Shown: one piece after another, positions 3,843 to 34,484 of the stretch
How the letters are laid out: each line of letters starts with the position of its first letter
Position numbering within the stretch: position 1 is the first letter of the stretch
DNA from: Gammaproteobacteria bacterium
Lineage (GTDB): Bacteria > Pseudomonadota > Gammaproteobacteria > HK1
DNA: 40,544 nucleotides
Assembly: GCA_041581935.1 (NCBI GenBank)
Contig: JBFICP010000001.1
Location: forward strand, 1-40,544
Reading direction: 5' to 3'
The notes under the pieces: generated by a model
What the model saw: only the letters and a program-made list of their open reading frames with translations
The model's database searches: none
Told to the model about the DNA's origin: nothing
Made by a program: the position numbers and the translations under genes

Positions 3843-5153
3843 TCAGCGCCGACAATCCAGCCAATCCCGAAGGCGATACCATTCGGTAACGACGGGAACC
3901 ATTCGTCGAGTGAGAAAATGCACCGGGTAGTGACGGAAATTCAGGTCATCAAAGGCGGTGTGCCCTTCCTTGTCTCCGAGTATCTTCAGGGCCACCTTGT
4001 GACCGAAGTACGTCGAACGCACGACTCCGGTGCCACAGTAGCCCATCGCGAAGTAGATGCGATCCCGGTTACCCAGGTGGGGAAACACGTCCTGCGTATA
4101 CGCGACGTATCCCGACCAGGCGTGAGTAATGCGTGTGCCCGCGAGCTCGGGAAAGACACGCAGCATGTCGTCATAAAGATGCACGAAGCCCTCGGCATCT
4201 TCGGGCAGCGATCCGCCCTTTATCCTGCCACCCCACAGAAACCGCCTGCCTTCGGTGCATAGCCGCATGTAGTGGTAGATACGCGAGCTGCTGCCGACAA
4301 CGCGGTTTTTCGGCATCAATCGCCGAACCTGCTCGGGGGCCAAGGGTTCGGTGGCGATGATGGCGCTGCCGATTGGGACGACGCGGCGATTGAACATCGG
4401 AAGCTGCGCGCCGGTGTAGCCGTTGGTGGCGACCAGCACGCAGCGCGCCTGCAACCGGCCGCGACCGGTGCTCACGAAGACGCGCCCGGAATTTTCAGAA
4501 ATTGCGCCAACGGGGTTGTGGCCTATGACCTTCGCCCCCGCAGCCTCGGCCTTTTCCAGCAATCCACGATGATAAAGGGCCGGATGCAGCGAGCCGTCAT
4601 TGGGCAGCACGGCACCGCCGTGATAGAAATCGCTGCCGACCTCCGCGTGCTGCTCGCTCCGGGGCACCATGTGTGACTCGACGCCGGCGAGTCTGCGCAT
4701 GTCCTCCATATCCCGGGCTAGCGCCTCGTAGTGGCGCGGAATTACCGCCCCGCGGAATCGTCCGACGCGAGAGAAATGACAATCGATGCCCTCGCCTTCT
4801 ATGAACTCGCCGAGGTGGCGAAGCATCGCCAGGCCTTCGGTGACCAGTGCCCGGGCCTTTTGCTCACCGTGGTTCGCGATCAGCTGGGCGGCGGTGAACT
4901 TCTGATTGCCGGTGCCGCATTGACCACCGTTGCGGGTGCTGGCGCCGTAGCCGGGCGCTTCGGCGTCGATGACGACGACCTCGCGCCCGGCCCGTGCCAG
5001 GGTGAGTGCTGCCGACAGACCGGTATAACCGGCGCCGACGATGACGACGTCGGCGCTCGCCGGCATCGCTGTCTCGGCATGCGCGCGTGGCGCCGCCGCC
5101 TCCCACCACCAAGGGGTGAATTTCACATCATGCGAAAAAGCCTCGAGCGTCAT
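3843..5153 (-). CDS. FAD-dependent oxidoreductase, PuuB/OrdL (gamma-glutamylputrescine oxidoreductase-like) family
   Basis: 436 aa. Dinucleotide fold VVIVGAGYTGLSAALTLARAGREVVVIDAEAPGYGASTRNGGQ. It recalls E. coli PuuB along its length (YHYMRLCTEGRRFLWGGR, MGYCGTGV, C-terminal FRHYP...YRLRDWL). A GAGG SD lies before ATG 5153. Confidence 0.8.
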   Translation of the reverse strand: MTLEAFSHDVKFTPWWWEAAAPRAHAETAMPASADVVIVGAGYTGLSAALTLARAGREVVVIDAEAPGYGASTRNGGQCGTGNQKFTAAQLIANHGEQKARALVTEGLAMLRHLGEFIEGEGIDCHFSRVGRFRGAVIPRHYEALARDMEDMRRLAGVESHMVPRSEQHAEVGSDFYHGGAVLPNDGSLHPALYHRGLLEKAEAAGAKVIGHNPVGAISENSGRVFVSTGRGRLQARCVLVATNGYTGAQLPMFNRRVVPIGSAIIATEPLAPEQVRRLMPKNRVVGSSSRIYHYMRLCTEGRRFLWGGRIKGGSLPEDAEGFVHLYDDMLRVFPELAGTRITHAWSGYVAYTQDVFPHLGNRDRIYFAMGYCGTGVVRSTYFGHKVALKILGDKEGHTAFDDLNFRHYPVHFLTRRMVPVVTEWYRLRDWLDCRR

Positions 5154-5193
5154 ATCCTCAGTCTCACCTGGCTTCGATCAAAGAAGCCGAGCC

Positions 5194-5207
5194 GAGCGAA
5201 GCCCGAC
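5194..5207. repeat. Partial copy of a REP-like intergenic core (gagcgaagcccgac)
   Basis: The 14-mer differs at one base from gagcaaagcccgac at 23012..23025. It lies in the 71-nt spacer between two minus-strand genes, next to a small hairpin ggcttc/gaagcc (5170..5188). Confidence 0.4.
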
Positions 5208-5224
5208 ATTCGACCGTTGCGCGA

Positions 5225-6103
5225 TCATGCCTGAACTCCCGACAGGGTCGCGACACCCGCCAGTATCATTCCAATTCCCAGCCATTGCACCCAGGACATG
5301 GCTTCACGTATGACCAGACGCGCAAGCAGAACCGTCACTGCGGAGAATGTCGATGCCAGTACGGCGGTCACGGCAGACGTCGCGTCCTGGCTGCCGGCTA
5401 CCAGCGCCAGAAGCGCGCCGCCGTCGAGAACGCCTTGCGCACACAGAATCGGCCACCAGCGCATTGGTATTCGCGGCATCTCGCGACGGGCCGCGAACAG
5501 CACAATGCAGCAGGCCAGGCTTATCCAGCGACCGAGAAACACGGCCTGGACTTCCCCGTAGATGGCTCCCGCCTCCTGTCCGGCAGCCACGGTGACGGCA
5601 AACGCGAGCGACGCCGCCAGCGCAATCAGCACTGTGATACGAAGGTGTGCACGCGTAAACGCGCCTCGGCTTTCGAAGTGTCTTGCCGAGCGCGCGACCA
5701 CGAAAACACCGACCATGACTGCGGCCATGGCGGCCCACTCCATCGCGCCCGGGCGCAAGCCGAGCGCCAGAGCGAGCAGAATATTGAAGGCTGGAAAGGT
5801 GCCGGCGATCGGTGCGACGATCGTTACGGGCCCGCGCACCAACCCCTGATAGAGCAACAGAGTTGCCAAGGTCAATCCGACGCCCATCAGCAGCAGCAAC
5901 CACCACCCGGCGCCCAGGTCACCGCCCAGTTCGCCGATGGGTAGATCGACGACGAGCACGACGCCGGTAAGAACCACCGCGCTCGCCACCAACATGCCGA
6001 ACAGGGCGTTGACATGACCGACGGCGCCGCCGGTGAAGCGCGCGATGAAGTCCGCGCTGCCCCAGGCGACGGCCGCCACGACGCCACCCAGCGCGGCGTT
6101 CAT
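5225..6103 (-). CDS. EamA/DMT-family transporter (10-TM permease)
   Basis: 292 aa and strongly hydrophobic, with a two-fold repeated 5-TM organisation. The N-terminal AAVAWGSADFIARF is typical of EamA domains. Confidence 0.75.
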   Translation of the reverse strand: MNAALGGVVAAVAWGSADFIARFTGGAVGHVNALFGMLVASAVVLTGVVLVVDLPIGELGGDLGAGWWLLLLMGVGLTLATLLLYQGLVRGPVTIVAPIAGTFPAFNILLALALGLRPGAMEWAAMAAVMVGVFVVARSARHFESRGAFTRAHLRITVLIALAASLAFAVTVAAGQEAGAIYGEVQAVFLGRWISLACCIVLFAARREMPRIPMRWWPILCAQGVLDGGALLALVAGSQDATSAVTAVLASTFSAVTVLLARLVIREAMSWVQWLGIGMILAGVATLSGVQA

Positions 6104-6150: not shown

Positions 6151-6753
6151 GTGGCCGCGAGCCCGCTTTCGCCAATGGCCGATATCGACGACGACGATCC
6201 GAAAGTCGCTCCGCTGGACCCCGCCGGTCGGGCCACGCGGCGCGCGTTTCTCGCCTGGCAGTGCCGCATCCGCCAGATGGCGGTGCGCCGGGCCGGCGGT
6301 CGCCCCAGTGCGGGCATGCGCCCCGGCGTCTCGGTGCCACCCCACCGGATGGACCTGGGCCCGGTAATCGTGCTCATCCGAAAAAAAGCGTCACAGGATA
6401 CGACGGCTCAGTTTCGACACATGGTGAAAAGAACACGGGACCCCGCTGAGCGCCGCGAAAGCGCGCTGCGTTTTCTGGCGGCCGCTTACTACCAAACACC
6501 TGATTCATTCAGCGACGAGATGACGGCGTTATTTGGTCCGTGCTCCGCGCTGCTCGATCGCGTTCTCGATGCGGGTCGGTGCGTCCTCGACTTCGAGCAA
6601 TTCGAGCAGCGATACCGGCTGGACTGCCGCGTGCGCGAGTTGGCGAGCTCCGACCCGGCGTTTGAGTTCACCTTCTGGCACAACAGCCTGTTCAATCCGG
6701 CGATACCTGGAGATGCACGAGTCATCGCCTTCAAGCCCGACTGGTCCGACTGA
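6151..6753 (+). CDS. Hypothetical protein, no recognisable domain
   Basis: 200-aa ORF, convergent with the downstream operon. The C-terminal two thirds look protein-like (ALRFLAAAYYQTPDSFSDEMTALFG...FEFTFWHNSLFNP). The start is uncertain (ATG 6151 or 6175). Confidence 0.5.
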   Translation: MAASPLSPMADIDDDDPKVAPLDPAGRATRRAFLAWQCRIRQMAVRRAGGRPSAGMRPGVSVPPHRMDLGPVIVLIRKKASQDTTAQFRHMVKRTRDPAERRESALRFLAAAYYQTPDSFSDEMTALFGPCSALLDRVLDAGRCVLDFEQFEQRYRLDCRVRELASSDPAFEFTFWHNSLFNPAIPGDARVIAFKPDWSD

Positions 6754-6816: not shown

Positions 6817-7227
6817 TCAGAATTTTCGATAGGCCTTGTTCAAGTCCACCATCGGATGGCGCCGGGACATCTGAAACTTCACTAGCAACTCGCGCGCCAG
6901 CATATCCCGGTCCTGCTGATTATTCGGGAGCTTCATGTTCTCCGGTATGCTGACCCAGCCGTTGATATTGCGATCGAAGACCGCGGGACGGCCGTCCTCA
7001 TAGCCCATGTGAATATCCTCGAGCCAGTTGAGATCATCCCAACCCATGGTTTCCATGTACTTTTTCAGAAACGGCGTCAGGCGCGAGTAGTCCGGAACCA
7101 GGTTGACGTCGTAACGGTAGCCGATGTGCTGGCCAATCTGCTGCTCTCGATCGGTGTCGATTCCGGAGCCTTTCATGTAGCGATCGACATCGTCGCCCGT
7201 CGAACTCGTCTCGGTCTTTTTAGCCAT
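6817..7227 (-). CDS. Hypothetical hydrophilic 136-aa protein, last gene of the glutamate-synthase-like operon
   Basis: An AAGGAG SD lies about 8 nt upstream of ATG 7227, immediately after the stop of the upstream gene (7240..7242). I recognise no TM segment and no known motif (…YMETMGWDDLNWLEDIHMGYEDGRPAVFDRNINGW…). Confidence 0.7.
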   Translation of the reverse strand: MAKKTETSSTGDDVDRYMKGSGIDTDREQQIGQHIGYRYDVNLVPDYSRLTPFLKKYMETMGWDDLNWLEDIHMGYEDGRPAVFDRNINGWVSIPENMKLPNNQQDRDMLARELLVKFQMSRRHPMVDLNKAYRKF

Positions 7228-7239
7228 GAAATTGCTCCT

Positions 7240-8625
7240 TCAGAATCGCGTCATGTCCGGGCGGCCGACGGTATATTGGGTGCCTGCGAGGGGCACTTGC
7301 GCCATCGCCGATGCTTCGGACGTGAGGGCCGCCAGATCCTCCGGCTCCAGAGAATGCACGTTGGTTTTGCCGCAGGCGCGGGCCATCATCTGGCATTCGA
7401 TGGTAAGCGTATGCAGGAAATTGTAGACCCGCTCGGCGGCGGCATCCGGATCCAGCCGCTTGCGCAATACCGGGTCTTGGGTCGCGACGCCGACGGGACA
7501 GCGCCCCGTGTGGCAGTGATAACAATATCCCGCCGGGACACCGATTTCGCGTTCGAAGTCCGATTCAGGAATTGCCTTGTTGCAATTGAGCGCCATCAAG
7601 GAAGAGTGCCCGATGGCCACCGCGTCTGCGCCCAGCGCCAACGCTTTGGCCACGTCGCCGCCGTTTCGAATGCCGCCCGCGTAGATGAGCGAGATCTCTC
7701 CCGACTTTCCCACGTCGTCGAGCGCGTGCCGCGCCTGGCGAATGGCGGCGATTCCCGGTACCCCGGTTTCCTCGGTGGCAAGATGCGGGCCGGCGCCGGT
7801 GCTACCTTCCATACCATCCATGTAGATGCAGTCCGGATCGGTCTTCGCGGCCATGCGCACGTCGTCGTATACACGTGCCGCGCCGAGCTTCAACTGAATC
7901 GGAATCTCCCAGTTGGTGGCTTCTCGAATCTCCTCAATTTTGAGCGCGAGGTCGTCAGGTCCAAGCCAGTCGGGATGGCGCGCGGGGGATCGCTGATCAA
8001 TGCCGGCCGGCAACGAGCGCATTTCCGCCACCTGATCAGTGACCTTCTGGCCCATGAGATGGCCGCCGAGTCCAACCTTGCACCCCTGACCGATGAAAAA
8101 CTCACACGCGTCGGCGAGTCGCAGATGGTGTGGATTGAAGCCGTAACGCGACTGAATGCACTGGTAAAACCATTTCTCCGAGTAACGGCGCTCGTCGGGA
8201 ATCATGCCACCTTCCCCGGAGCACGTGGCGGATCCGGCCATTGTCGCACCACGCGCAAGCGCGGTCTTGGCCTCGTAGCTGAGCGCGCCGAAGCTCATGC
8301 CGGTGATGTACACGGGAATATCCAGCACCAGTGGACGTTTGGCCCGCGGGCCGAGCACGGTTTTGGTGTCGCACTTCTCGCGATAGCCTTCGATGACGAA
8401 GCGCGTCAGCGTCCCGGGCAGAAATGTGAGATCGTCCCAGCTCGGAATTTTCTTGAAAATCGAGAAGCCGCGCATGCGGTAGCGCCCGAGCTCCGCCTTG
8501 ATGTGTATGTCGTTGATGACTTCCGGTGGAAACAGAAAACTCTTCCCGAGCCTGTACCGCTCGCTCTCCGCCGGCTTGGACACGGGCGCCGGGGTGACTT
8601 CCGACTTGGCCATTTTGCTACTCAT
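7240..8625 (-). CDS. FMN-binding glutamate synthase family protein (GltB central-domain-like; MgsC/GlxC-like)
   Basis: 461 aa. Motifs: ITGMSFGALSYEAK, SGEGGM, GQGCKVGLGGHLMGQKVT, DGMEGSTGAGP, GGIRNGGDVAKALALGADAVAIG, CYHCHTGRCPVGVATQDP. A GGAGAGG SD is present. Confidence 0.9.
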   Translation of the reverse strand: MSSKMAKSEVTPAPVSKPAESERYRLGKSFLFPPEVINDIHIKAELGRYRMRGFSIFKKIPSWDDLTFLPGTLTRFVIEGYREKCDTKTVLGPRAKRPLVLDIPVYITGMSFGALSYEAKTALARGATMAGSATCSGEGGMIPDERRYSEKWFYQCIQSRYGFNPHHLRLADACEFFIGQGCKVGLGGHLMGQKVTDQVAEMRSLPAGIDQRSPARHPDWLGPDDLALKIEEIREATNWEIPIQLKLGAARVYDDVRMAAKTDPDCIYMDGMEGSTGAGPHLATEETGVPGIAAIRQARHALDDVGKSGEISLIYAGGIRNGGDVAKALALGADAVAIGHSSLMALNCNKAIPESDFEREIGVPAGYCYHCHTGRCPVGVATQDPVLRKRLDPDAAAERVYNFLHTLTIECQMMARACGKTNVHSLEPEDLAALTSEASAMAQVPLAGTQYTVGRPDMTRF

Positions 8626-8644
8626 TGCAGTCCTCTCCGGGGCG

Positions 8645-9490
8645 CTACAGCACCAGCTTCTTTTCGGTGGGCTCGAGGTTGTCGTAGTTCCAGAGCTGCT
8701 TGCCCGATACGATCTTGGTCATGTTCTCGACACCGTCGGGGGCATCGAGGTCGTACATGGCGAGCTTTCTCTTTAACCACGCCGCTTCCAGGTCGGTCAT
8801 CTCGGCTTCCACGGCGTCGACGCCGAGGTCCGCGATTTTCCCACCCACATATATAATCCCGTCGTACATGGAGTCGCCGAGATTCTTCCCGGCGTCTCCG
8901 CAGATAATCATCCGGCCGCGCTGCATCATGAATCCGCTGAAGGCACCCGTACGACCGCCGACGATGATGGTTCCGCCCTTCATGTCGATGCCGGTTCGGC
9001 TCCCGACGTCACCCTTGCATACGAGGTCGCCGCCGCGAATCGCTGCTCCGAAGGTGGAGCCTGCGTTTTTCTCGATGACGACGGTCCCCGACATCATATT
9101 CTCGGCGCAGGACCAGCCAACACGCCCGGAGATGCGTACATTCGGGCCATCGATGAGACCGACGCCGAAATAGCCGAGGCTACCCTCGAAGTAGAGCTGC
9201 AGACGATTGAGAATACCTACGCCGATCGAATGCTTGGCGCCGGGATTCTTTACAACGATGGTGCCATATCCCTCGCGCATGAGATCGCGAATTTTCAAAT
9301 TGATGGCCTTGGAATCCATGTTGGCAACGTCAATCTCGATGCGCTTGTTGAAGTCGACATCGAACGCACCCGGATAGGTAAAGTTCTCCTCTTCCTCGGG
9401 CAGGAAAAAGACCTGCTGGGTGCGGCCCGCCAGCTGCTCCGTGTGCATTCCCATCTCGTAGGATGCATGGTCGCGATCTAGCTCTGCCAT
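8645..9490 (-). CDS. GXGXG-motif protein (glutamate synthase C-terminal beta-helix domain-like; MgsB/GlxD-like)
   Basis: 281 aa with repeated G-x-G turns: GSLGYFGVGLIDGPNVRISGRVGW...GTVVIEKNAGSTFGAAIRGGDLVCKGDVGSRTGIDMKGGTIIVGG...ICGDAGKNLGDSMYDGIIYVGG. It overlaps the upstream gene by 13 nt. Confidence 0.9.
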   Translation of the reverse strand: MAELDRDHASYEMGMHTEQLAGRTQQVFFLPEEEENFTYPGAFDVDFNKRIEIDVANMDSKAINLKIRDLMREGYGTIVVKNPGAKHSIGVGILNRLQLYFEGSLGYFGVGLIDGPNVRISGRVGWSCAENMMSGTVVIEKNAGSTFGAAIRGGDLVCKGDVGSRTGIDMKGGTIIVGGRTGAFSGFMMQRGRMIICGDAGKNLGDSMYDGIIYVGGKIADLGVDAVEAEMTDLEAAWLKRKLAMYDLDAPDGVENMTKIVSGKQLWNYDNLEPTEKKLVL

Positions 9491-10413
9491 ACTTTGACCT
9501 CCCCTTCGTAGGGATCGTAGGTGTCGATCTCGTGGGGAAAGATGCTTCTGATGGCGACCTCTTCCGAGGCCAGCGCAACGAAATCATCGCTCTCATACAA
9601 GACCATGGGTTTTGCGGCCATGACGTCCTTGGCCATTCCGAGCTTGTCGCCAGTTGCCACCACGTAGGTAAACACGCCGTCAAGCTCATGAATGGATTGC
9701 TGCATGGCTTCCTCGAGCTCCTCTCCGCGATCGATAGCATCGGCGAGATACACGGCGATGAGCTCGGAGTCGCAGTTGGACATGAAGCGGTGACCGCGGC
9801 GCTCGAGTGCGCGACGCTTGCCCCAGTAGTTGGTCAGCTGGCCGTTGTGCACCACCGACACGTCGTTGAACGGATATGCCCAGTAAGGATGTGCGGATCG
9901 AATATCGACATCGGATTCCGTCGCCATGCGAGTGTGGCCGATGGCATGGGTGCCCTGGAAATCGTCGAGACCATACTGCTTGGATACGCGATTGGCGTCT
10001 CCGAGATCCTTGATGAGTTCGAGCGCGTGACCAATCGAGAGAATCTCCGCGCCGTCGACGTCCTCGATATAGTCCGCCAGCCGTTTCAGATCGCCGTCGA
10101 AGCTGAAAACATACCGATGGGCATATTCGGTAACCTGCTCCTCGGATTCGATGCGGGCGCCCAGCTCCTTCATGCGATTATCGACGGTCGCCTTGCGTTC
10201 CTTCATCTGGCGTACGATGTCGAAACCTTTCTTGATGTCTTCCTGCTCGGCCACCTTGAAACGCATGACGTGCTTGTCCGCCATCGGATTGCCGTACAGC
10301 GCAAATCCGCTGGAGTCGGGACCGCGATGCTTGAGCGACTGAAGCATCGCGGTCAACTCCCCGCCGATATTTGCGCTCTTTCCCTTGTGAATCAGTCCGG
10401 CTATTCCGCACAT
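9478..10413 (-). CDS. Class II (Ntn) glutamine amidotransferase-like protein (MgsA/GlxB-like)
   Basis: 311 aa. It starts MCGIAGL (Cys directly after Met, the Ntn nucleophile). Also present: HRGPDSSGFALYG, HTRMATESDV, VVHNGQLTNYW, CDSELIAVYL. Confidence 0.9.
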   Translation of the reverse strand: MCGIAGLIHKGKSANIGGELTAMLQSLKHRGPDSSGFALYGNPMADKHVMRFKVAEQEDIKKGFDIVRQMKERKATVDNRMKELGARIESEEQVTEYAHRYVFSFDGDLKRLADYIEDVDGAEILSIGHALELIKDLGDANRVSKQYGLDDFQGTHAIGHTRMATESDVDIRSAHPYWAYPFNDVSVVHNGQLTNYWGKRRALERRGHRFMSNCDSELIAVYLADAIDRGEELEEAMQQSIHELDGVFTYVVATGDKLGMAKDVMAAKPMVLYESDDFVALASEEVAIRSIFPHEIDTYDPYEGEVKVWQS

Positions 10414-10482
10414 GGATAAACACTCCTGGTCAATTTCAGGCCGCCCATAGGCTGCATTGACGATCGCCTGTCCTGACGATTG

Positions 10483-11955
10483 TCAGGGCAGACAGTCGAT
10501 ATATGTTTTCAAATCCCACTCGGTAACCGTGTGATTGAAGCGCTCCCACTCGTCGCGCTTGTAATGCATGAAGACCCTGAACATCTCATCCGGCATTGCC
10601 TCTCGAATAATTTCGTCGGCCTCCAGCCTCTCCAGCGCGTCGCCGAGAGACATGGGCAGCTTCTTCACCATCTTTCCCGCCTCCATGGCCTCGTAGATGT
10701 TGCGTTCTTCGGGTTCGCCGGGATCAATGTCGTTGTCGATACCGTCCTCGAACGCCTTCAGCAGCGCGCCCGCCATGAGGTACGGATTGACCATGGAGTC
10801 CACGGAACGGTATTCGAAGCGTCCCGGTGCCGAAATGCGCAAAGCGCATGTGCGGTTCTGATAACCCCAGTCGGCGAACACCGGTGCCCAGAATCCGGTA
10901 TCCCATAGTCGTCTGTAAGAGTTCACCGTAGATGATCCGATAGCGGTCAGAGCACCGAGATGCTTCATTACTCCGCCGATGCACTGCAACCCAACGGGTC
11001 CGGGCTTTCGCTCATCGAGCTTGGGATCCGGCATGAACAGATTCTCGCCACCGGTGCGATACGAGAACGCACCCTCCATTCCCGGCAGGGGTTTCTGATG
11101 GAGGCGATTCACCTGGTCTTCGCCGCCCGTCCAAAGCGACATGTTGTGATGACAGCCGGACGCCGAAACACCCATGAAAGGCTTGGACATGAAGCACGCG
11201 ATGTAGCCCATCTCACGGGCCACCTGGGCGCATATTTGGCGGTACGTCGTGAGCCGATCGCAGGTTCTCAACGCCTCGTCGAAGGTAAAATTGAGCTCGA
11301 GCTGCCCGGGCGCGTCCTCGTGATCGCCCTGGATCATGTCCAGACCCATAGCCTGAGCGTACTCGATGACCTTCATGAAGGCCGGGCGCAACCCCTCGAA
11401 CTGGTCGATGTGATAACAGTTCGGCTTGGTGACTCCGCCATTCGGTCCGCCGTCCTCGCCACGTTTCAACCACATCATCTCCGGCTCGGTGCCGTGGCGC
11501 AGATGCATGCCTTTGTACTTGTGCTTGAATGCATCGTGGAGAATGCGCAGATTCCCACGGCAGTCCGAGGTCAGATGACCGCCGGGATTCTCCCGCTCTT
11601 CACGATTGCGAAAGCAGGTGCAATAGACTCTTGCAACGCGTTTGTCCCAGGGAAGCTGACAGAAGGTTTCCGGATCGGGAATGCCCACTAGCTCCGAGGC
11701 CTCGGGACCGTATCCAATGTAATGCCCGTGGCGATCCAGATAGAGATTCGCCGTCGAGCCATAGACCAGCTGAAACCCGCGCTCAGCGATGCGTTCCCAG
11801 TGATCCGCGGGAATGCCCTTGCCGACGATGCGGCCGGTAACCGAAATGAACTGGTAGTAGATGTAGGTGATGCCGAGCTCGTTGATTTTTTCGCGCACCT
11901 GCCTGACGAGCTCGTCGCGTCCGGGCGCACTGACATGGACTTCCAGATCGGTCAT
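10483..11955 (-). CDS. Glutamine synthetase family protein (gamma-glutamyl-amine ligase candidate; GmaS/PuuA-like role)
   Basis: GS catalytic-domain motifs: GDHEDAPGQLELNF, MSKPFMGVSASGCHHNMSLW, STVNSYRRL, YQNRTCALRI, VDSMVNPYL. I prefer ATG 11955 (MTDLEVH) because GGAGGAG lies upstream. The track ORF extends to 12000. It is longer than the GS paralog at 31966. Confidence 0.85.
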   Translation of the reverse strand: MTDLEVHVSAPGRDELVRQVREKINELGITYIYYQFISVTGRIVGKGIPADHWERIAERGFQLVYGSTANLYLDRHGHYIGYGPEASELVGIPDPETFCQLPWDKRVARVYCTCFRNREERENPGGHLTSDCRGNLRILHDAFKHKYKGMHLRHGTEPEMMWLKRGEDGGPNGGVTKPNCYHIDQFEGLRPAFMKVIEYAQAMGLDMIQGDHEDAPGQLELNFTFDEALRTCDRLTTYRQICAQVAREMGYIACFMSKPFMGVSASGCHHNMSLWTGGEDQVNRLHQKPLPGMEGAFSYRTGGENLFMPDPKLDERKPGPVGLQCIGGVMKHLGALTAIGSSTVNSYRRLWDTGFWAPVFADWGYQNRTCALRISAPGRFEYRSVDSMVNPYLMAGALLKAFEDGIDNDIDPGEPEERNIYEAMEAGKMVKKLPMSLGDALERLEADEIIREAMPDEMFRVFMHYKRDEWERFNHTVTEWDLKTYIDCLP

Positions 11956-12033
11956 TTTCTTCTCCTCCTGGCGCCGATCATCGACATCGGCTTCGTTCAA
12001 TCGTCCGCCGGGTATTCCCGACTCTGTTGTTCT

Positions 12034-13377
12034 TCAGCTCCAAGGGAATGGGCTGTGAGACACCGGGTGGAGCTTTCCCTCGGCGTAACGCGAAAAACGA
12101 AACGGCTTCAGCAATTCGCTGCTGGAGCCGCAGATCTCAGCGGCGACCAGCTTGCCGACTCCGATCATCTTGTAGCCGTGATTCGAATCTGCGATCACGT
12201 AGCAGTTTTCTCGAAACACGTCGAACACCGGAAAGCTGTCCGGCGTGAACGCGCCGATACCACCGGACGGCTCGTTTTTGTATTTGCCGATTTGGCCCGA
12301 AAACCGCTCCTGACAGTGCGCCAGCGCCGAGCACCACATGTGTGCGAACCAATCGTCGACGACATAGTCCGGGGACTCGGTGCCGTAAGGGTCCACCTTT
12401 ACGTCGTCTGGCGGCGTGGTGATCTTATTGGGTGCCGCGCCGCCCTGGATGCCGCCGAAATGGAAATCCGGCTTGTAGTAGATACCCCACATCTGCTCGG
12501 TGATGAGCGATCCATCCACATCCGAAACAAGCGGTGCATCGCTGTCTACGTGGATGACGGGCGGGAAATCGCCATCGTTGGTCCTCTGCAGTCCCGGATC
12601 AACCCCCAAGGTGCCTTCCTGCAGCGACCAGAAGACCCACATGGGAATATCATCGTGCATGGTCCCGTCCGATCCTTTGATGCTGACCTTGCGCGGCAGC
12701 TCGAGCATGTCCCAGAGGCTCTTTACCCAGGGTCCGGCGGCCACGACGACGTAGTCGCATTCGATTGGGCCGCGATCGGTTTGCACGGCGCGGATCGCGT
12801 CACTCGCGTCGGCACTGACGAATCCCGTGACCCGTGCGCCGGTCAGAATCCGAACGCCTTCCGCTTCCGCCTTGTCGGCGAGTCCGTAAAGGCTGCTGGT
12901 ATTGTTGGCGTAGCCGCCGCGCTTCTCGTGCAGAACCGAAGTGATCCCCTCGGCCCGCCAATCGTGGAACAGACGGCGCATGTACTCGGACGATGCCTTG
13001 GCGCCTTCGACGAAAACCGATTCGTAGTCGATGTCCCTCTGCTGGTCGGCGATTCCGGCGACGTCTTCGCGCATGCATTCGGGACTTATCTGCATGTAGC
13101 CGACGGGATGATAGTGGTAGGTTTCCGCGTCGCTCTCCCAGACCGAGACACTGTGTGCCATGAGCTCGCGCATAGCCGGCTGGAAGTAATTGTTACGAAC
13201 CACGCCGCAGGCGATTCCCGAGGCCCCGGCGCCGATGGAGGTCTTGTCGACCACCAGAACGTCCTCGCCACTGCCGCGGCCACGGGACTTGAGCTCCCGG
13301 GCAAGATGCAACGCGGTGCTGAGACCGTGGATACCGGCGCCGATGATCAGATACTTGGCGTGGGTCGGAAATGCCAT
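12034..13377 (-). CDS. FAD-dependent oxidoreductase (DAO / sarcosine-oxidase-beta-like family)
   Basis: KYLIIGAGIHGLSTALHLAR...VLVVDKTSIGAGASGIACGVVRNNY is the typical DAO N-terminus. ATG 13377 (MAFPTHAK) places the GxGxxG at the N-terminus. The track ORF extends to 13431. Confidence 0.85.
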   Translation of the reverse strand: MAFPTHAKYLIIGAGIHGLSTALHLARELKSRGRGSGEDVLVVDKTSIGAGASGIACGVVRNNYFQPAMRELMAHSVSVWESDAETYHYHPVGYMQISPECMREDVAGIADQQRDIDYESVFVEGAKASSEYMRRLFHDWRAEGITSVLHEKRGGYANNTSSLYGLADKAEAEGVRILTGARVTGFVSADASDAIRAVQTDRGPIECDYVVVAAGPWVKSLWDMLELPRKVSIKGSDGTMHDDIPMWVFWSLQEGTLGVDPGLQRTNDGDFPPVIHVDSDAPLVSDVDGSLITEQMWGIYYKPDFHFGGIQGGAAPNKITTPPDDVKVDPYGTESPDYVVDDWFAHMWCSALAHCQERFSGQIGKYKNEPSGGIGAFTPDSFPVFDVFRENCYVIADSNHGYKMIGVGKLVAAEICGSSSELLKPFRFSRYAEGKLHPVSHSPFPWS

Positions 13378-13557
13378 CGAAGTTATCCTGTATAGACCAA
13401 ATTGAGGCCGGAAGTTCTTCCGAGGCGCCATGGCCCTCAGGTTGTCGCGACCTGCCCGTCAACCATCGCCGTGTCGACTCGGTCGCGAAATTACAGTTTC
13501 AGTCGCTCGGTTGCGGCTTGCGGCGCGTTTACGGTAGCGGGTATATTCAAACCGGCT

Positions 13558-13599
13558 TTGGGACCAATTTCAAGCCTGACGAAAAGAATCAATGGTCCA
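13558..13599. promoter_or_regulatory. Candidate GntR/FadR-type operator half-palindromes in the divergent promoter region
   Basis: ttgggaccaa (13558..13567; TTGG-nn-CCAA) and tggtcca (13593..13599; TGG-n-CCA) lie 30 to 75 nt upstream of the GntR gene. They sit in the 254-nt spacer shared with the oxidoreductase operon. The TGGTCC core resembles FadR-type boxes. Confidence 0.3.
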
Positions 13600-13631
13600 A
13601 ATCAATACCACTTTGAAATGGCTCGAGTGCG

Positions 13632-14366
13632 ATGGCCAATAGCTCGAATGGCTTCGCCGGATCCGCCCCGCCACGCAGCGGGGCAAACCTCGCCCAACCC
13701 GCCGTAACCGGCTCGGCGCGCATCGTCACGCAGCTGCGCCGCGCCATCCTCGACGGAAACTACGGCTATCGCGAGCGGGTACCTTCGGAGCGCGAGCTGG
13801 CGGCCGAGTTCGGCGCTGCGCGCGGCACGGTTCGCACCGCTTTGAAGCAACTCGAGGACATGAATCTCGTCATTCGGCGACCGGGGAGCGGAACCTTCGT
13901 ACGCTATCGCGGCCACGCTGACGAGGAGGACATCGCCGAGCAGACCTCGCCGCTCGAGCTGATCGAGGTGCGCCTGTCCGTGGAACCCTCGGTGGCGCGC
14001 CTGGCGGTCATGCACGCCAATGCCCAGGACATCGAACGCATGGCGGAGGCGCTGGCGCGGGTGGAGGGCGCGAATACCGATCCGGAAACGTTCTCGCGCG
14101 CTGACGAGACCTTTCATCTGGCGCTGGCCGAGAGCACCCGCAACCCGCTCATGGTCTGGCTGTACCGCCACATCAACGATGTGCGCGGGCATGCGCAGTG
14201 GAGCGTGCGCAAGGACAAGATTCTCACGCCGGCACGCATTTCCGAGTACAACAAGCAACACCGCGAGCTGTTCACGGCAATCGAGAGCCGGGATACCCAG
14301 GCCGCGGCCGAAATCATGACTCGGCATTTGGAAAAGGCCCGGGCCGACCTGCTGGGATTTGCCTGA
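13632..14366 (+). CDS. GntR-family transcriptional regulator, FadR subfamily (wHTH + FCD domain)
   Basis: 244 aa. LRRAILDGNYGYRERVPSERELAAEFGAARGTVRTALKQLEDMNLV is the GntR wHTH. The helical C-terminal domain has the E..R..E, H, H pattern typical of FCD (LELIEVRLSVEP...FHLALAE...EYNKQHRELF). Confidence 0.9.
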   Translation: MANSSNGFAGSAPPRSGANLAQPAVTGSARIVTQLRRAILDGNYGYRERVPSERELAAEFGAARGTVRTALKQLEDMNLVIRRPGSGTFVRYRGHADEEDIAEQTSPLELIEVRLSVEPSVARLAVMHANAQDIERMAEALARVEGANTDPETFSRADETFHLALAESTRNPLMVWLYRHINDVRGHAQWSVRKDKILTPARISEYNKQHRELFTAIESRDTQAAAEIMTRHLEKARADLLGFA

Positions 14367-23848: not shown

Positions 23849-25252
23849 TCAATCTGCGCCCGCGCGAGCACCGACGGCCTCGCTCTCTGCGTTGATGATG
23901 CCCTGCTCGTCGGCGAAGCGTTCCGCGTTGGCCCCGACGTCGAGACCGGCGAGCTCCACTTCCTTGGGAATACGCAGCAAGCCGGCAGCATTCAGAATCT
24001 TTGCCGTGACCCAGCCCGGCAGGAATCCCAGCACCCAGAACATGATCACGGCGCCGATGAACTGACCCCACGGGGTAATGACGGCGAACGAGGGGTCCGG
24101 CGAGGACGGGTATCCCCACAGGAATATTCCGGCGATGAATACACCGAAACAGCCCGCGTACCCGTGCACGGCCACCGCGCCGACGGCATCGTCGATCTTG
24201 AATCTCTTCTCCACGAAATAGTGGACCTTGTACATGAAGATCACGCCACCCGCGGCGATGAACATCGCCTGTATCGGATGATACAAATCGTTGCCCGCCG
24301 ATGCGGCGATGATGCCTGCGAGACCCGATGAGTAGGTCCAGAACGCATCGCCTTTGGACACGATGTAACCCATCAGGAGCCCTCCCGAGAGCGACATCAG
24401 GAAGTTGACGGTGATCGCGGACAGCGTGGTTGGCGCGAGATAAATATTGGTCGCCGAGAAGAACACGCCGTCGCCGTCCTGGATATCCCACATGGGCACG
24501 TTGCACGCCACATAGAATCCCCAGAATCCCGTATAAATGAGAAACAGACCGATGGTCACCAGCCAGGGATTGCGCGGATGGATGTTGCGCGGGGTACCGT
24601 CGGCGGCGAATTTGCCGATGCGCGGTCCCAGCACGAACAGGATTCCGAGGGCATACCCGCCGGCGATGGCGTGAATGACACCCGATGCGTAGGCATCGTG
24701 ATAACCGAGCTTTTGCACCATCCAGCCCGCCGAGTGCCAGCCCCAGGCGGCGTCGATAATCCACCACACCGAGCCGATGCCGACCGCCAGAATCCAGAAG
24801 CCGGTCGACTTGATGCGCTCGATCACCGAGCCCGAGACGATGGACGCCGCGGTCCAGGAGAACAGCAGGAATGCCGCCCAGAAAACGCCGTTGATACGCG
24901 CCCATCCGGCCGTGTCATCGGCGGTCAGCGCCTCGGTCGCCGGGGTGCCGCCCATGTGCGGGCCCATGAGCTCGCTCCAGGCCACCGCCCACGGAGCAGA
25001 CTCGATGCCGCCGGTGATGCCGGGGCCGTTTGGGAAGGCGAAATAGATCCACCATCCGAAGAAGAAGAACGTGATTGTCACCAACGGGATGAGCATGGTG
25101 TTCTTCATCAGCGTGTGCATGTGATTCTTGTGCCGGCTGGCACCGACCTCGTACATGCAAAAGCCGACGTGGATGAAGAACATGATCACCACCGTCAACC
25201 AGTAGTAGAACTCGGTAAAGAGTATTCCGAGTGCGGTTAGTTCATTGTCCAT
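23849..25252 (-). CDS. amt: Ammonium transporter (Amt/MEP family)
   Basis: 467 aa, about 11 TM. Amt-type contexts: HVGFCMYEVGASRHKNHMHTLMKN, ASGVIHAIAGGYALG, DDAVGAVAVHGYAGCFGV (both pore His contexts are present). Confidence 0.9.
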   Translation of the reverse strand: MDNELTALGILFTEFYYWLTVVIMFFIHVGFCMYEVGASRHKNHMHTLMKNTMLIPLVTITFFFFGWWIYFAFPNGPGITGGIESAPWAVAWSELMGPHMGGTPATEALTADDTAGWARINGVFWAAFLLFSWTAASIVSGSVIERIKSTGFWILAVGIGSVWWIIDAAWGWHSAGWMVQKLGYHDAYASGVIHAIAGGYALGILFVLGPRIGKFAADGTPRNIHPRNPWLVTIGLFLIYTGFWGFYVACNVPMWDIQDGDGVFFSATNIYLAPTTLSAITVNFLMSLSGGLLMGYIVSKGDAFWTYSSGLAGIIAASAGNDLYHPIQAMFIAAGGVIFMYKVHYFVEKRFKIDDAVGAVAVHGYAGCFGVFIAGIFLWGYPSSPDPSFAVITPWGQFIGAVIMFWVLGFLPGWVTAKILNAAGLLRIPKEVELAGLDVGANAERFADEQGIINAESEAVGARAGAD

Positions 25253-25624
25253 TCTCTACCTCCCCTCCGGTCGCTTTTTGCTTGATTGCCCCGCAGGCCC
25301 AAACCCCCTGGCCTCGCGGGCACGCACGCTCGAGCGGCTTCCCGTCACGTCCGACGACGTGATTGTTTATCTCGGGAAACTTGAGAAGTGAACGCGGATG
25401 AGGAACGCAACGAACGAAACGCGAGCGGGCAGCAACGGGGAACGTCCGAAAACCCCCGCATGGATGTGTCCCCCCGACGCGAAGTTGTCGCGGTTCTCAT
25501 CTTCCCCCGATTTCCTCCTCGATGATTCGCGCGTGCAACACGAACCAACAGAGGATTAATATACTGGAAATTCTTTCCCAATGTGCAACAAATATTCAAC
25601 ACACGACAGGATCGGTCGGCACTA

Positions 25625-26284: not shown

Positions 26285-26426
26285 AATGGCCCATTAGGAA
26301 GGGGCTCATTCATGTGGGGAAAGTTTTTCTCTTGCAGGTTGATCCGGCCCGAGCGAGGGTTTACGCTCATCGGGCTCGGGAATTCGGTCCCATTGGCTCG
26401 AGCACAGTCGCTCACCAGGAGGCACC

Positions 26427-29278: not shown

Positions 29279-29279
29279 C

Positions 29280-31823: not shown

Positions 31824-31873
31824 AGCGTTTTCGGGGAATCCGATATTCTCTCGCGGGCAGGGGAATTCGATCC

Positions 31874-31932
31874 TGTAGCAGCACCGTCGGTTGGGCTTGG
31901 CTGCGCTTCGCCCAACCGACGGTGCTCCTACA
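31874..31932. repeat. 59-nt REP-like palindrome between the gltD-like fusion and the GS gene
   Basis: The perfect 16-bp arms are gcaccgtcggttgggc (31881..31896) and gcccaaccgacggtgc (31910..31925). They are extended by tgtag/ctaca with one mismatch. The element shares the GGTTGGGC core with 22896..22914. Confidence 0.75.
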
Positions 31933-31965
31933 TGAGAAAATCAAAAAACGAATGGGAGGTTCACC

Positions 31966-34149: not shown

Positions 34150-34484
34150 GGCTCGTGCGTCCTTAGATGGTGGGTTCGGAAACGGTCCCTACGCACCGCT
34201 TCGACATGTCCTTTATCGGCCGGATCCCGGGATAGTTTAGCCATCCGAGGCCCCGGCACGGCCCCGAGCCGCGGGCGAGGGCCGCGATCGGCTCACCCGG
34301 CGTGCGGGGGGTGCGCGATTCGCCCGGTTCGCGCGGTGGAGGTGTCCCGAGCGTGACGGAGTCGGCAATTTGCGTGCTTCCGGGGCGTCAATCGTCACAG
34401 CGGTGTAGCGCCCAAGGTTTAAGGAATGCCGGATCCGGCCGATACTCCTTTTAGGAATTTAGTTAACCGCCAGAGGGGTGAGCC

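Follow-up and report, generated by a model that had tools for sequence, protein, structure and literature searches.

The stretch of DNA analyzed here (the window, 40,544 nucleotides) carries six co-oriented genes on the minus strand, running from position 13377 to position 6817. The first (12034 to 13377) encodes a DAO-family flavoprotein of 447 amino acids (FAD465/447, hereafter FAD465; Pfam DAO, E = 3e-34); its start at 13377 matches the MAFPTH... start of its orthologs, and a longer open reading frame extends to 13431. It is followed by GS490 (10483 to 11955; 490 aa), a GS-like ATP-dependent ligase (Gln-synt_C, 4e-81); GAT311 (9478 to 10413; 311 aa), a class-II (Ntn) amidotransferase subunit resembling MgsA/GlxB (GATase_6/7, 1e-15); GXGXG281 (8645 to 9490; 281 aa), a GXGXG-domain subunit resembling MgsB/GlxC (Pfam GXGXG, 1e-16); FMN461 (7240 to 8625; 461 aa), an FMN glutamate-synthase-domain subunit (Glu_synthase, 7e-89); and unk136 (6817 to 7227; 136 aa), a small protein of no known family. 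The gaps, in operon order, are 78, 69, -13 (the GAT311 and GXGXG281 genes overlap by 13 nt), 19, and 12 nt, and a search of the operon interior, on the operon strand, returned no terminator-like site. The first-pass annotation had described these tightly spaced genes and their products and had recognized in them the logic of the N-methylglutamate (NMG) pathway; the genes lie at the coordinates it gave, and the elements of that logic are indeed there, namely the GS-like ligase, the GltB-like enzyme in three pieces, and the FAD enzyme. Convergent to the operon, on the plus strand, lies a conserved gene, unk200 (6175 to 6753, with an ORF start at 6151; about 192 aa from Met9).

Conservation was assessed in 81 loci from other species, 43 of them fully flanked, with neighbors scored within about 10 kb. 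Wherever the flank is long enough, these loci share one five-gene order (GS-GATase-GXGXG-FMN-136aa). The conserved arrangement is far beyond chance, and relatives of unk136, used as a marker, are present in at least 535 species genomes. The convergent unk200 gene is a seventh conserved member of the set, near the module in 52 of the 81 loci and usually directly after unk136. The FAD gene, by contrast, is a variable member. It was found no more than 10 kb from the module in 34 of 81 loci; among the 43 fully flanked loci, 26 have it and about 40% lack it in the neighborhood. The gene set is real, very widely conserved, and uncharacterized, as had been supposed at first pass: a literature search found no paper describing the module, and homologs of both unk136 and unk200 are named "hypothetical" throughout. 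For unk136, which matched nothing in Pfam or NCBIfam, this applies to every source name listed; all 8000 of the 8000 candidate 90% clusters scored were homologs, there are only 303 clusters at 50% identity, and a search among the clusters for genuine fusions found none. The protein is 75% identical to its SAR324 counterpart over residues 23 to 136, contains no cysteine, and has three invariant histidines (H34, H73, and H124); its AF2 model (pLDDT 67) gave no fold match in the PDB. It is very conserved and always follows the FMN gene, and we propose that it is a fourth subunit or an accessory protein. The other protein, unk200, likewise has no Pfam match and has 629 homolog clusters ("hypothetical" in the source names given). 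Nearly all top Foldseek matches of its AF2 model (pLDDT 89) are PNPOx-like/FMN-split-barrel proteins, at weak scores (E = 1e-3 to 1e-1, TM of about 0.4), and its predicted fold is FMN-binding split-barrel-like.

Divergently upstream, as first proposed, is a gene for a GntR-family regulator with an FCD ligand domain (13632 to 14366, plus strand; Pfam GntR, 2e-18; FCD, 2e-29), whose ortholog (45 to 71% identical) occupies the same position in 55 to 56 of the 81 loci. The intervening promoter/operator region (13378 to 13631) contains one exact ATTGGT/ACCAAT box at 13563, with near-matches around 13397 and 13590 to 13616. The box is found in 53 of 56 orthologous GntR-operon intergenic regions, and 41 of the 56 have two or more copies, compared with shuffled means of 6.7 and 0.5 loci, respectively, and with 3 of 55 in a coding control. 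By this distribution, ATTGGT behaves as a conserved operator motif associated with the GntR/FCD regulator. The TMA cluster, in contrast, has an AraC-type regulator (TmaR in R. pomeroyi), and GlxA-like AraC genes occur near NMG genes in 12 to 13 of the loci.

The ligase GS490 is 85% identical to SAR324 proteins, 30 to 33% identical to GmaS orthologs, 29% to E. coli GlnA, and 25% to E. coli PuuA. Placed phylogenetically against GmaS, GlnA, and PuuA, it forms a separate neighbor-joining clade, and it reaches the cutoff of none of the NCBIfam GS models (302 bits versus 469.6 for TIGR03105, 253 versus 429 for GlnA, and 222 versus 650 for PuuA). About 40 extra amino acids are inserted between positions 281 and 323, and, as noticed at first pass, the protein is longer (by 55 aa) than the 435-aa paralog at 31966, which is a true GmaS ortholog (E = 1e-192 to RhGmaS, 7cql). 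Inspection of the ammonium-site residues in an alignment revealed a pocket of the GmaS type. The RhGmaS amine-pocket residues K30', Y147, Q175, D177, E179, E186, and N188 (roles from PMC7948447) and the flap Trp300 are kept in 8 of 8 GS490 orthologs, and the only change is Y174 to Ile. Like GmaS, GS490 replaces the His/Ala/Ala of E. coli GlnA with Asp/Gln/Asn, and a Trp occupies the position of the essential Glu-flap glutamate of GS. GmaS prefers monomethylamine (MMA) over ammonium, and RhGmaS takes dimethylamine (DMA) in vitro (PMC7948447). The full GmaS amine pocket, the equivalent of the catalytic Asp177, and the Trp in place of the flap glutamate together indicate that GS490 is an amine ligase and not a glutamine synthetase, and we propose that it acts as a gamma-glutamyl-(alkyl)amide synthetase.

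The three synthase-like subunits occur as separate genes in the same order as in MgsABC (GlxBCD). GAT311, which begins MCGI with the cysteine directly after Met, is 75% identical to its SAR324 ortholog and 32% identical to the MgsA-type protein of the same SAR324 locus; GXGXG281, about 55 aa longer than MgsB, is 76% identical to its ortholog and 39% to the MgsB-type protein; for FMN461 the corresponding values are 88% and 52% (MgsC-type). With 27% for the ligase against SAR324 GmaS, these components are not orthologous to characterized GmaS/MgsABC, and the module is an uncharacterized relative of the NMG pathway, adding two conserved proteins, unk136 and unk200.

A further difference lies in the FMN subunit. 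FMN461 contains the motif NCNK-(17 aa)-CYHCHTGRCPVGVATQD. It has four cysteines, three of which align with the C-X5-C-X4-C of E. coli GltB, and none of the four varies among the 8 module sequences aligned. Among eight canonical MgsC-type sequences, by contrast, seven have none of the three GltB-aligned cysteines and one (L025) keeps the third, whereas a cysteine at the extra, fourth position occurs in three. FMN461 evidently retains the GOGAT iron-sulfur site, whose cysteines the MgsC-type proteins have lost, keeping at most one of the three; with such a site, the FMN subunit would be expected to exchange electrons with a partner.

The module also shares its amidotransferase, FMN, and GXGXG domains with GOGAT (bacterial GltBD, ferredoxin-GOGAT, and the split archaeal form), as well as a partner ligase that supplies the amide substrate. 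A rival reading is an ammonium-assimilating system in which a true glutamine synthetase is paired with a split glutamate synthase, dependent on ferredoxin or a flavoprotein, like that known from archaea. The GltB-type cysteines and the Ntn cysteine fit such a system, as do the Amt genes nearby, the ferredoxin gene in SAR324, and the Asp that GS490 keeps at the position aligning with the GS Asp50' loop (YLDRHG versus YFDGSS). We nevertheless consider this very improbable: the flap glutamate essential to GS is a Trp, the residues replacing the GlnA His/Ala/Ala are exactly those of MMA-preferring GmaS, the GlnA model cutoff is missed, and neither the FAD N-demethylase-like gene nor the C1 genes would have a role. 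Unlike in GOGAT, the domains are separate proteins, the operon has no GltD gene, 17 residues are inserted between the first cysteine and the others, and the ligase active site is GmaS-type, not GS-type.

The flavoprotein is 64% identical to its SAR324 ortholog. The Pfam DAO match covers only residues 27 to 245, the N-terminal half, and the score against the TIGR01373 soxB model is 74 bits (cutoff, 529 bits). Its best PDB matches are 1y56_B (annotated sarcosine oxidase; 1e-11), SoxB (1e-7), and dimethylglycine oxidase/dehydrogenase (1e-5), and its closest solved relatives are therefore N-methyl-amino-acid oxidases. FAD465 is by these matches a distant relative of sarcosine oxidase beta and dimethylglycine oxidase, with which it has the DAO-type FAD domain in common; unlike that family, it lacks the folate-binding GcvT domain and has no partner subunits in the operon. 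We propose that it is an oxidative N-demethylase. The earlier statement that a single FAD subunit replaces the four Mgd proteins (MgdABCD) holds in the window; elsewhere the module often lies beside Sox/Mgd-like heterotetramer genes.

The first-pass annotation placed the operon outside a methylotrophy context, which the neighborhood contradicts. The window itself has, 10 to 20 kb from the operon, Amt, the true GmaS, and an NMG-synthase-like cluster, with the GmaS gene adjoining its own Fe-S, GltD-coupled synthase-like genes; tdm, tmm, and dmmD were not found in the window. Elsewhere the module lies inside TMA/TMAO/MMA islands. In SAR324 it comes immediately after tdm, in divergent orientation to gmaS-mgsABC, and Amt and OpuAC are in the vicinity; this locus also adds a 2Fe-2S ferredoxin gene. 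Among the 81 loci, neighbors include Tdm orthologs (17 loci; 51 to 58% identical to P. aminophilus pAMI6 Tdm), Tmm (8; 59 to 76%), the dmm/tmm-linked APC permease (7), GmaS-type proteins (8 to 10), Sox/Mgd-like alpha subunits (11 to 16), and Amt (19 to 26). At least one of Tdm, Tmm, DmmD, GmaS, and SoxA-like (Sox/Mgd) proteins lies within about 10 kb in 29 of the 43 fully flanked loci; a strict methylated-amine neighbor is absent from the other 14. Because the window holds GmaS, Amt, and NMG-like genes and the module occupies such islands in other genomes, its substrate is most likely a methylated amine.

The earlier reading, glutamate-mediated deamination of some other primary amine unrelated to C1 metabolism (ethylamine, ethanolamine, or an amino-sulfonate or phosphonate), would have the FAD enzyme oxidize the N-alkylglutamate to glutamate and an aldehyde. 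Several other genes in the window suit it. The nearest encode a TauE exporter, an ABC transporter of the NitT/TauT type, a member of the enolase superfamily, and a Zn alcohol dehydrogenase; there are also an EamA transporter and a second DAO enzyme, which weakly matches oxidase models for aminophosphonate and pipecolate. Ligases of the GS-like type are also known that act on ethanolamine, polyamines, and isopropylamine. As in the module, PuuA (putrescine), GlnA4 (ethanolamine), and IpuC (isopropylamine) activate the amine as a gamma-glutamyl amide; those pathways, however, oxidize the alkyl chain, then hydrolyze the amide, and lack a GOGAT-like three-protein enzyme (the sequence comparison covered PuuA). 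This reading seems improbable to us, since those window neighbors are not conserved across the 81 loci (EamA in 6, the others in essentially none), the recurrent neighbors are Tdm, Tmm, DmmD, GmaS, Mgs, Mgd, and Amt, and the pocket residues of GS490 are of the methylamine-ligase type.

The conclusion that the substrate is not methylamine itself is still plausible, for a reason other than that first given: the module co-occurs with canonical gmaS-mgsABC, both in the same loci and in the window, while DmmA, DmmB, and DmmC had no matches in the window or within about 10 kb of the module in any of the 81 loci. Our preferred but tentative reading, with the substrate drawn from gene neighborhood only, is a GntR-controlled, glutamate-mediated, electron-coupled catabolic route for a small methylated amine other than MMA, most probably dimethylamine. 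In an ATP-dependent step, GS490 would join the amine to glutamate at its gamma-carboxyl, so that DMA would become N5,N5-dimethylglutamine. A complex of GAT311, GXGXG281, and FMN461, probably with unk136, would then work like glutamate synthase: the Ntn subunit would hydrolyze the gamma-glutamyl amide and channel the amine to the FMN site, where it would condense with 2-oxoglutarate and be reduced to the N-alkylglutamate. Candidate electron partners for the FMN subunit are FAD465, the split-barrel unk200, or a ferredoxin as in SAR324. FAD465 would remove one methyl oxidatively as formaldehyde, from either N,N-dimethylglutamate (variant A) or gamma-glutamyl-dimethylamide (variant B), and the product, N-methylglutamate or gamma-glutamylmethylamide, would enter the ordinary NMG pathway. 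Against this route, we know of no GOGAT-type site that performs a reductive amination with a secondary amine. The lack of tdm, tmm, and dmmD in the window, the 14 fully flanked loci with no strict methylated-amine neighbor, and the loci with no FAD465 gene near the module also weigh against it. If correct, the route would be a previously undescribed way of breaking down dimethylamine, which is a climate-relevant compound of the ocean.

The main alternative is a second, electron-coupled monomethylamine system operating under conditions (for instance, of nitrogen limitation or affinity) other than those of canonical GmaS/MgsABC. GS490 would form gamma-glutamylmethylamide, which the Fe-S synthase, with 2-oxoglutarate and reducing equivalents, would convert to N-methylglutamate and glutamate by GOGAT logic, and FAD465 would be a single-subunit N-methylglutamate oxidase or dehydrogenase. 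The GS490 pocket, near-identical to that of GmaS, would fit MMA as well as DMA, which counts against the dimethylamine route. The ammonium/methylammonium-type Amt is a frequent neighbor, the module sits in NMG islands, and FAD465 resembles SoxB, the catalytic type of NMG dehydrogenase. We nonetheless judge a second MMA system unlikely, if less so than the other alternatives. The module is almost always added to canonical gmaS-mgs genes in its locus or window rather than replacing them, the window already has GmaS with its adjoining synthase-like genes, and the adjacency of tdm and dmmD to the module without dmmABC would be left unexplained.

For the dimethylamine route, the co-occurrence with gmaS-mgsABC means that the module is not redundant with the MMA enzymes, and the module may fill the place of the missing dmmABC beside tdm, tmm, and dmmD. 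In P. aminophilus, tdm and tmm flank dmmDABC, and in the Granulosicoccaceae the gene order is Tmm-Tdm-GntR and then the module. SAR11 and abundant marine Gamma- and Deltaproteobacteria are reported to lack dmmDABC (Lidbury 2017). The argument is tempered by the reach of the dmmABC search, about 10 kb around the module: in R. pomeroyi, dmm (SPO1579-1582) and tdm, which we take to be SPO1562, are about 17 genes apart by locus-tag numbering. Like DmmDABC of R. pomeroyi, P. aminophilus, and M. silvestris, the module occurs beside tdm, tmm, and the APC permease, and in two loci (L019 and L044) a DmmD ortholog (57 to 58% identical) adjoins the GntR gene and the module. The two systems have no sequence relationship, DmmA, DmmB (DUF3445), and DmmC (PDR/VanB reductase) having no counterparts in the module loci. 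Their proposed net role, removal of one methyl from DMA, would be the same, but the chemistry proposed for the module is ATP and glutamate dependent rather than an NADPH/O2 monooxygenation.

The six genes of the module lie on the minus strand, separated in operon order by 78, 69, -13, 19, and 12 nucleotides (nt). They encode a DAO-family flavoprotein (FAD465; 12034-13377; 447 amino acids [aa], with a Pfam DAO match of E 3e-34 in the N-terminal half only), a glutamine synthetase (GS)-like ligase (GS490; 10483-11955; 490 aa; Gln-synt_C, E 4e-81), a class-II Ntn amidotransferase (GAT311; 9478-10413; 311 aa, starting MCGI, with GATase_6/7 domains), a GXGXG protein (GXGXG281; 8645-9490; 281 aa; Pfam GXGXG), an FMN glutamate-synthase-domain protein (FMN461; 7240-8625; 461 aa; Glu_synthase, E 7e-89), and a 136-aa protein matching no Pfam or NCBIfam family (unk136; 6817-7227). 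Gene calls and Pfam domains agree with the order, strand, and gene types reported in the first-pass annotation. The FAD465 start at 13377 coincides with those of its orthologs; a longer open reading frame (ORF) extends to 13431. On the plus strand, a GntR/FCD regulator (13632-14366) is divergent from the operon, and a 200-aa ORF with no Pfam match (unk200; 6151-6753) converges on its end. A terminator scan detected no terminator-like sites on the operon strand inside the operon, counts in the sigma-70 and terminator scan of the whole window equaled shuffle expectation, and Rfam and tRNA scans of the window returned no match. Long plus-strand ORFs, such as 7009-8856 and 11722-13395, lie across conserved genes of the minus strand and were set aside as chance or shadow ORFs.

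All seven genes have orthologs on four SAR324 contigs. The ligase is 84 to 86% identical to proteins of marine SAR324 bacteria, and identities to the SAR324 orthologs are 88% for FMN461, 85% for GS490, 76% for GXGXG281, 75% for both GAT311 and unk136, 64% for FAD465, and 37% for unk200. The G+C content of the operon is 0.56 to 0.60, against 0.62 to 0.64 in its flanks and about 60% for the organism. This lower G+C content, together with the 64 to 88% identity to SAR324, suggests horizontal transfer or unusually strong constraint, and the gene neighborhoods of the module may therefore be partly coinherited. Neither a whole-operon megablast nor a tblastn search with unk136 matched anything in a plasmid collection.

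When an alignment of unk136 was scanned against one genome per GTDB species, relatives were recovered from at least 535 genomes, and metagenomes hold thousands of variants. The 80 best loci plus SAR324 formed a set of 81 nonredundant loci, which were mapped by tblastn with defined reference proteins. Carriers in this set include Alphaproteobacteria (Dongiaceae, Kiloniellaceae, Rhodospirillales, and Hyphomicrobiales), Gammaproteobacteria (Granulosicoccaceae and Arenicellales), a Burkholderiaceae metagenome-assembled genome (MAG), a Candidatus Cybelea MAG, and SAR324. One carrier, Virgifigura deserti SYSU D60014 (L011), is in culture. The order ligase-amidotransferase-GXGXG-FMN-136-aa protein is kept in every contig that is long enough. 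The divergent GntR gene occurs in 55 to 56 of the 81 loci, and the unk200 gene in 52, mostly convergent and directly after the unk136 gene. The FAD465 gene occurs in 34 of 81, either leading the operon or lying a few kilobases away, and about 40% of well-flanked loci lack it nearby. The module is thus a genuine regulated unit that has been successful through vertical and horizontal descent, not a chance juxtaposition.

The intergenic regions between GntR and the operon share an ATTGGT box, which is present at least once in 53 of 56 regions and at least twice in 41. Shuffled sequences yielded 6.7 and 0.5 loci at these two thresholds, and coding pieces of the same size yielded 3 of 55. In the window (13378-13631) and the 56 orthologous regions, the ATTGGT/ACCAAT boxes, which probably serve as the operator for this GntR subfamily, are often arranged as an inverted pair, ACCAATTTT...AAAATTGGT.

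The ligase reaches none of the curated NCBIfam cutoffs for GS proteins, scoring 302 bits against the GmaS model TIGR03105 (cutoff, 469.6) and 253 bits against the GlnA model (cutoff, 429). We aligned GS490 orthologs with the GmaS of PDB entry 7cql (RhGmaS), three other GmaS orthologs, and GlnA and PuuA of Escherichia coli. The orthologs form a separate neighbor-joining clade, with 30 to 33% identity to GmaS, 29% to GlnA, and 25% to PuuA. The first-pass annotation had named close orthology of all components to GmaS and MgsABC with demonstrated methylamine specificity as an observation that would count against a distinct pathway; at this identity, and below the TIGR03105 cutoff, GS490 is no close ortholog of GmaS. 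GS490 owes its extra length to an extended N terminus, a lengthened loop at GS Asp50', and about 40 residues inserted between positions 281 and 323.

Roles have been assigned to the amine-pocket and flap residues of RhGmaS (PMC7948447), and those lining its methylamine site (Lys30', Tyr147, Gln175, Asp177, Glu179, Glu186, and Asn188) are kept in 8 of 8 GS490 orthologs, as is the Trp that replaces the "Glu-flap" glutamate of GS. The sole change nearby is Tyr174 to Ile. E. coli GlnA differs from GS490 at 6 of these 8 positions, sharing only Glu179 and Glu186. Of the checks proposed at first pass, placement against GmaS, GlnA, and PuuA and inspection of the ammonium-site residues return a clade of its own with GmaS-type residues. 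From the kept pocket and flap residues, GS490 is predicted to be an amine ligase of the GmaS type on a distinct conserved scaffold. A PuuA-type pathway was rejected: GS490 is not a PuuA ortholog (222 bits against NF045547, with a cutoff of 650, in addition to the low identity), and the operon proteins scanned contain no class-I (PuuD-type) amidotransferase or aldehyde dehydrogenase domain.

The remaining core proteins resemble both the N-methylglutamate (NMG) synthase and glutamate synthase (GOGAT). As in the NMG pathway, the three synthase genes run in the order Ntn amidotransferase, GXGXG, FMN, beside a ligase with a GmaS-type amine pocket. Unlike that pathway, the module has no GmaS ortholog as its ligase and has a single DAO gene in its operon in place of the four-subunit MgdABCD. 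Identities to the canonical gmaS-mgsABC products of the same SAR324 locus are 27% for the ligase, 32% for the amidotransferase, 39% for the GXGXG protein, and 52% for the FMN protein; the module components are paralogs, not orthologs, of the characterized NMG set. As in GOGAT, the amidotransferase, which starts MCGIAGL, has the N-terminal nucleophile Cys1.

The FMN proteins of the module and of the canonical pathway differ in their cysteines. The FMN subunits of eight modules, drawn from distant taxa, were aligned with eight canonical MgsC-type proteins and E. coli GltB. FMN461 has Cys at all three positions aligned to the GltB motif C-X5-C-X4-C, whose residues we take to be the 3Fe-4S ligands of glutamate synthases, next to the FMN site. 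Its own motif, NCNK-17 aa-CYHCHTGRC, contains a fourth Cys, and all four are invariant in 8 of 8 module sequences; a 17-aa insertion relative to GltB sets the first apart from the others. In contrast, the MgsC-type proteins, which include one encoded beside glnT on a Ponticoccus plasmid that also has an annotated tdm, have Asp, Trp, and Asp at the three aligned positions, except that one (L025) keeps the third Cys and three have Cys at the position of the fourth. The absence of Fe-S cysteines as a feature of MgsC is derived here from these eight sequences and not taken from a published definition.

The aligned cysteines indicate a putative Fe-S cluster in FMN461. For the canonical NMG synthase, the internal cycle is believed to be redox neutral. 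Because the Fe-S cysteines are kept, we infer that the module synthase would exchange electrons with a partner, as GOGAT does. The operon contains no GltD gene, and candidate partners are FAD465, unk200, and a SAR324 2Fe-2S ferredoxin. The gene for this 116-aa protein (Fer2; L001:15252-15602) follows the unk136 gene in SAR324 and was not found in the other 80 loci. Cys1 and the three GltB-aligned cysteines are what a plain GS/GOGAT pair for ammonium assimilation would have, but the ligase, which lacks the flap Glu and has a GmaS-type site, contradicts such a pair and makes it highly improbable.

The solved structures nearest FAD465 are enzymes that remove N-methyl groups from amino acids. The AlphaFold2 (AF2) model of unk200 is confident (pLDDT, 89) and has a weak but consistent match to FMN-binding split-barrel proteins. 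The unk136 protein has no cysteine and three invariant histidines; its AF2 model is moderate (pLDDT, 67), and Foldseek found nothing in the PDB better than E 1.7. A profile search of 1.84 billion representatives returned no remote homologs or genuine fusions of unk136, the few long matches being rejected as error-ridden, frameshifted reads.

In aerobic degradation, trimethylamine (TMA) is converted by Tmm to trimethylamine oxide (TMAO), which Tdm splits into dimethylamine (DMA) and formaldehyde. DmmABC then converts DMA to monomethylamine (MMA) and formaldehyde, DmmD capturing the C1 unit, and MMA passes through gamma-glutamylmethylamide (GmaS) and NMG (MgsABC) to glutamate and methylene-H4F (MgdABCD). 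Reference Tdm, Dmm, APC permease, and Tmm proteins came from pAMI6, a chromid of P. aminophilus that has been studied genetically and on which tdm, dmmDABC, a gene for an APC permease, and tmm are found (PMC4543880). Neighbors were counted within about 10 kb in the 81 loci. Tdm orthologs (51 to 58% identical to the reference) occur in 17 loci, Tmm (59 to 76%) in 8, the APC permease (46 to 57%) in 7, and DmmD (57 to 58%) in 2 (L019 and L044), immediately by GntR and the module. Also counted were Amt (19 to 26 loci), a Sox/Mgd-like alpha subunit (11 to 16), a GlxA-like AraC regulator (12 to 13), and a GmaS-type ligase (8 to 10), and SoxA/SoxB-like genes adjoin the module in 11 to 19 other loci.

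Several arrangements recur. In SAR324, the operon starts 166 nt past a DUF1989+GcvT gene whose product is 55 to 58% identical to Tdm of P. aminophilus and Ponticoccus, and gmaS-mgsABC runs divergently from it; genes for Amt and for an OpuAC binding protein lie alongside. Granulosicoccaceae have Tmm-Tdm-GntR followed by the divergent module, and in the lineage of locus L072, tdm lies downstream of the unk136 gene on the same strand. The first-pass annotation had placed the operon outside a methylotrophy context, which fails across loci: of the 43 loci whose core is complete and whose flanks are good, 29 encode at least one Tdm, Tmm, DmmD, GmaS, or SoxA-like protein. A tblastn search with the pAMI6 queries gave 0 matches to DmmA, DmmB (DUF3445), and DmmC (PDR/VanB reductase) in the window and in the flanks of about 10 kb of all 81 loci. 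In the module islands, the DMA step is the only step of the aerobic TMA pathway without a candidate gene.

The window itself has no tdm, tmm, dmmD, or SoxA-like gene, and its right flank has no C1 genes; Amt, a GmaS ortholog, and a second amidotransferase/GXGXG-FMN/GltD-like set lie 10 to 20 kb from the operon. Nearer neighbors of the operon include TauE, a NitT/TauT-type ABC transporter, and an alcohol dehydrogenase, which would fit the original proposal that the substrate is some primary amine other than methylamine. These neighbors are specific to the window and are not conserved elsewhere, leaving that proposal improbable.

Lidbury et al. (PMC5520151) reported that SAR11, as well as abundant marine Gamma- and Deltaproteobacteria carrying the rest of the pathway, lack dmmDABC, a situation that they termed a bottleneck. 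RhGmaS turns over DMA in vitro (PMC7948447). The module has the right parts for a DMA route, since it combines a GmaS-like ligase, an amidotransferase-tunnel-FMN enzyme that could load an amine onto 2-oxoglutarate, and a flavoprotein related to N-demethylases. Judged by neighborhood and residues, a glutamate-mediated DMA route is a serious possibility that falls just short of probable. Two variants of this route can be envisaged, each with the net reaction DMA + 2-oxoglutarate + ATP -> NMG + formaldehyde. In the first, dimethylglutamine would be converted to N,N-dimethylglutamate and then to NMG and formaldehyde. In the second, the flavoprotein would demethylate dimethylglutamine to gamma-glutamylmethylamide, which the Fe-S synthase would then reduce onto 2-oxoglutarate with the electrons just released. 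We know of no precedent for GOGAT-type reductive amination with a secondary amine.

An alternative is that the module is a second, electron-coupled system for MMA, in keeping with an amine pocket unchanged from GmaS and with the Amt neighbors. Such a system leaves unexplained both why the module adds to the canonical gmaS-mgs genes instead of replacing them and why it is paired with tdm and dmmD without dmmABC, and we consider it rather unlikely. The DMA route can be stated in a fuller form, which we advance more tentatively than the route as such: that the module is the missing DMA system of the numerous bacteria in which tmm, tdm, and gmaS are present and dmmABC is not (among them SAR324, Granulosicoccaceae, Arenicellales, and a large number of Alphaproteobacteria from sea and soil), acting through N5,N5-dimethylglutamine and then N,N-dimethylglutamate or gamma-glutamylmethylamide, with a GOGAT-like Fe-S enzyme coupled to the FAD demethylase and with unk136 and unk200 as subunits or electron carriers.

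Methylated amines make up a sizeable share of the dissolved organic nitrogen in the sea and serve as precursors for marine aerosols. It has been accepted since 2017 that many marine lineages of high abundance lack the DmmABC step, which creates a metabolic bottleneck (PMC5520151), and a 2026 study of TMA-pathway regulation still takes dmmDABC as the DMA enzyme (PMC13390433). The literature searched, including that study, yielded no published description of the module, of an alternative DMA route, or of the predicted intermediates; matches to "dimethylglutamine" came from reviews that deal with cyclodepsipeptides of marine origin and with anti-HIV compounds rather than with amine metabolism in bacteria. 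We rate the module among the glutamate-mediated amine pathways, and its occurrence in at least 535 species, its position beside tdm, tmm, or dmmD, and its fitting demethylation chemistry make it a concrete candidate, open to testing, for another DMA route. If it were one, the proposed marine "DMA bottleneck" would be at least partly an annotation gap, and N5,N5-dimethylglutamine, N,N-dimethylglutamate, or gamma-glutamylmethylamide would be intermediates new to bacterial metabolism. Even if the substrate is not DMA, the module adds a new branch of GS-like amine ligases that is very conserved, a sequence marker (the Fe-S cysteines) separating electron-coupled from redox-neutral NMG synthases, and two widespread, annotation-less protein families, unk136 and unk200. 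Where sources name the homologs, the ligase is called "glutamine synthetase" and unk136 and unk200 "hypothetical protein," names that can mislead the reading of the nitrogen cycle in metagenomes. The high interest of the module stems from turning an open question of marine nitrogen and aerosol biogeochemistry into a few simple experiments.

Other genes recur near the module. A PhyH-family dioxygenase recurs next to the module and Tmm/Tdm, or in the interval separating them, in L006, L007, and L012 (about 4.6 to 19 kb) and also in L010, L024, L044, L049, and L082; an APC-family permease, 46 to 57% identical to the pAMI6 dmm/tmm neighbor, goes with it in L006, L007, L012, and L044. Two MAGs, one of Methyloceanibacter and one of an uncultured alphaproteobacterium, encode a third type of GS-like ligase adjacent to the module and upstream of GntR (L025:1417 and L050:1486); this ligase is 40 to 42% identical to GmaS and has Q175 changed to Ser and N188 to Asp in its amine pocket. 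In the window, unk200 is adjoined by an EamA transporter and a second DAO-family oxidoreductase that weakly matches models of aminophosphonate and pipecolate oxidases (3843-6103); near the module, EamA occurs in 6 and this second DAO type in 3 of the 81 loci.

A second amine cluster occupies 23849-33273 of the window. It includes an Amt transporter (minus strand) and, at 25583-26284, an XRE-cupin regulator; an amidotransferase is encoded at 26427-27338 and a four-Cys GXGXG+FMN fusion at 27320-29278. The 847-aa product of 29280-31823 is GltD-like and has an additional FMN-like domain at its C terminus, and 31966-33273 encodes the GS-like paralog that had been called GmaS/GlnT-type and proves to be a true GmaS ortholog (E 1e-192 to 7cql). 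The cluster appears to be a version of the GmaS/NMG-synthase cluster coupled to NAD(P)H. In locus L042, the Amt, amidotransferase, fusion, and GltD-like genes come after the module with their order kept. Just past gmaS in the window (33388-37475) are genes for a MotA/ExbB-like protein, several small Pfam-less proteins, and an AAA_22 ATPase, a group that also occurs in two related MAGs (L091 and L092).
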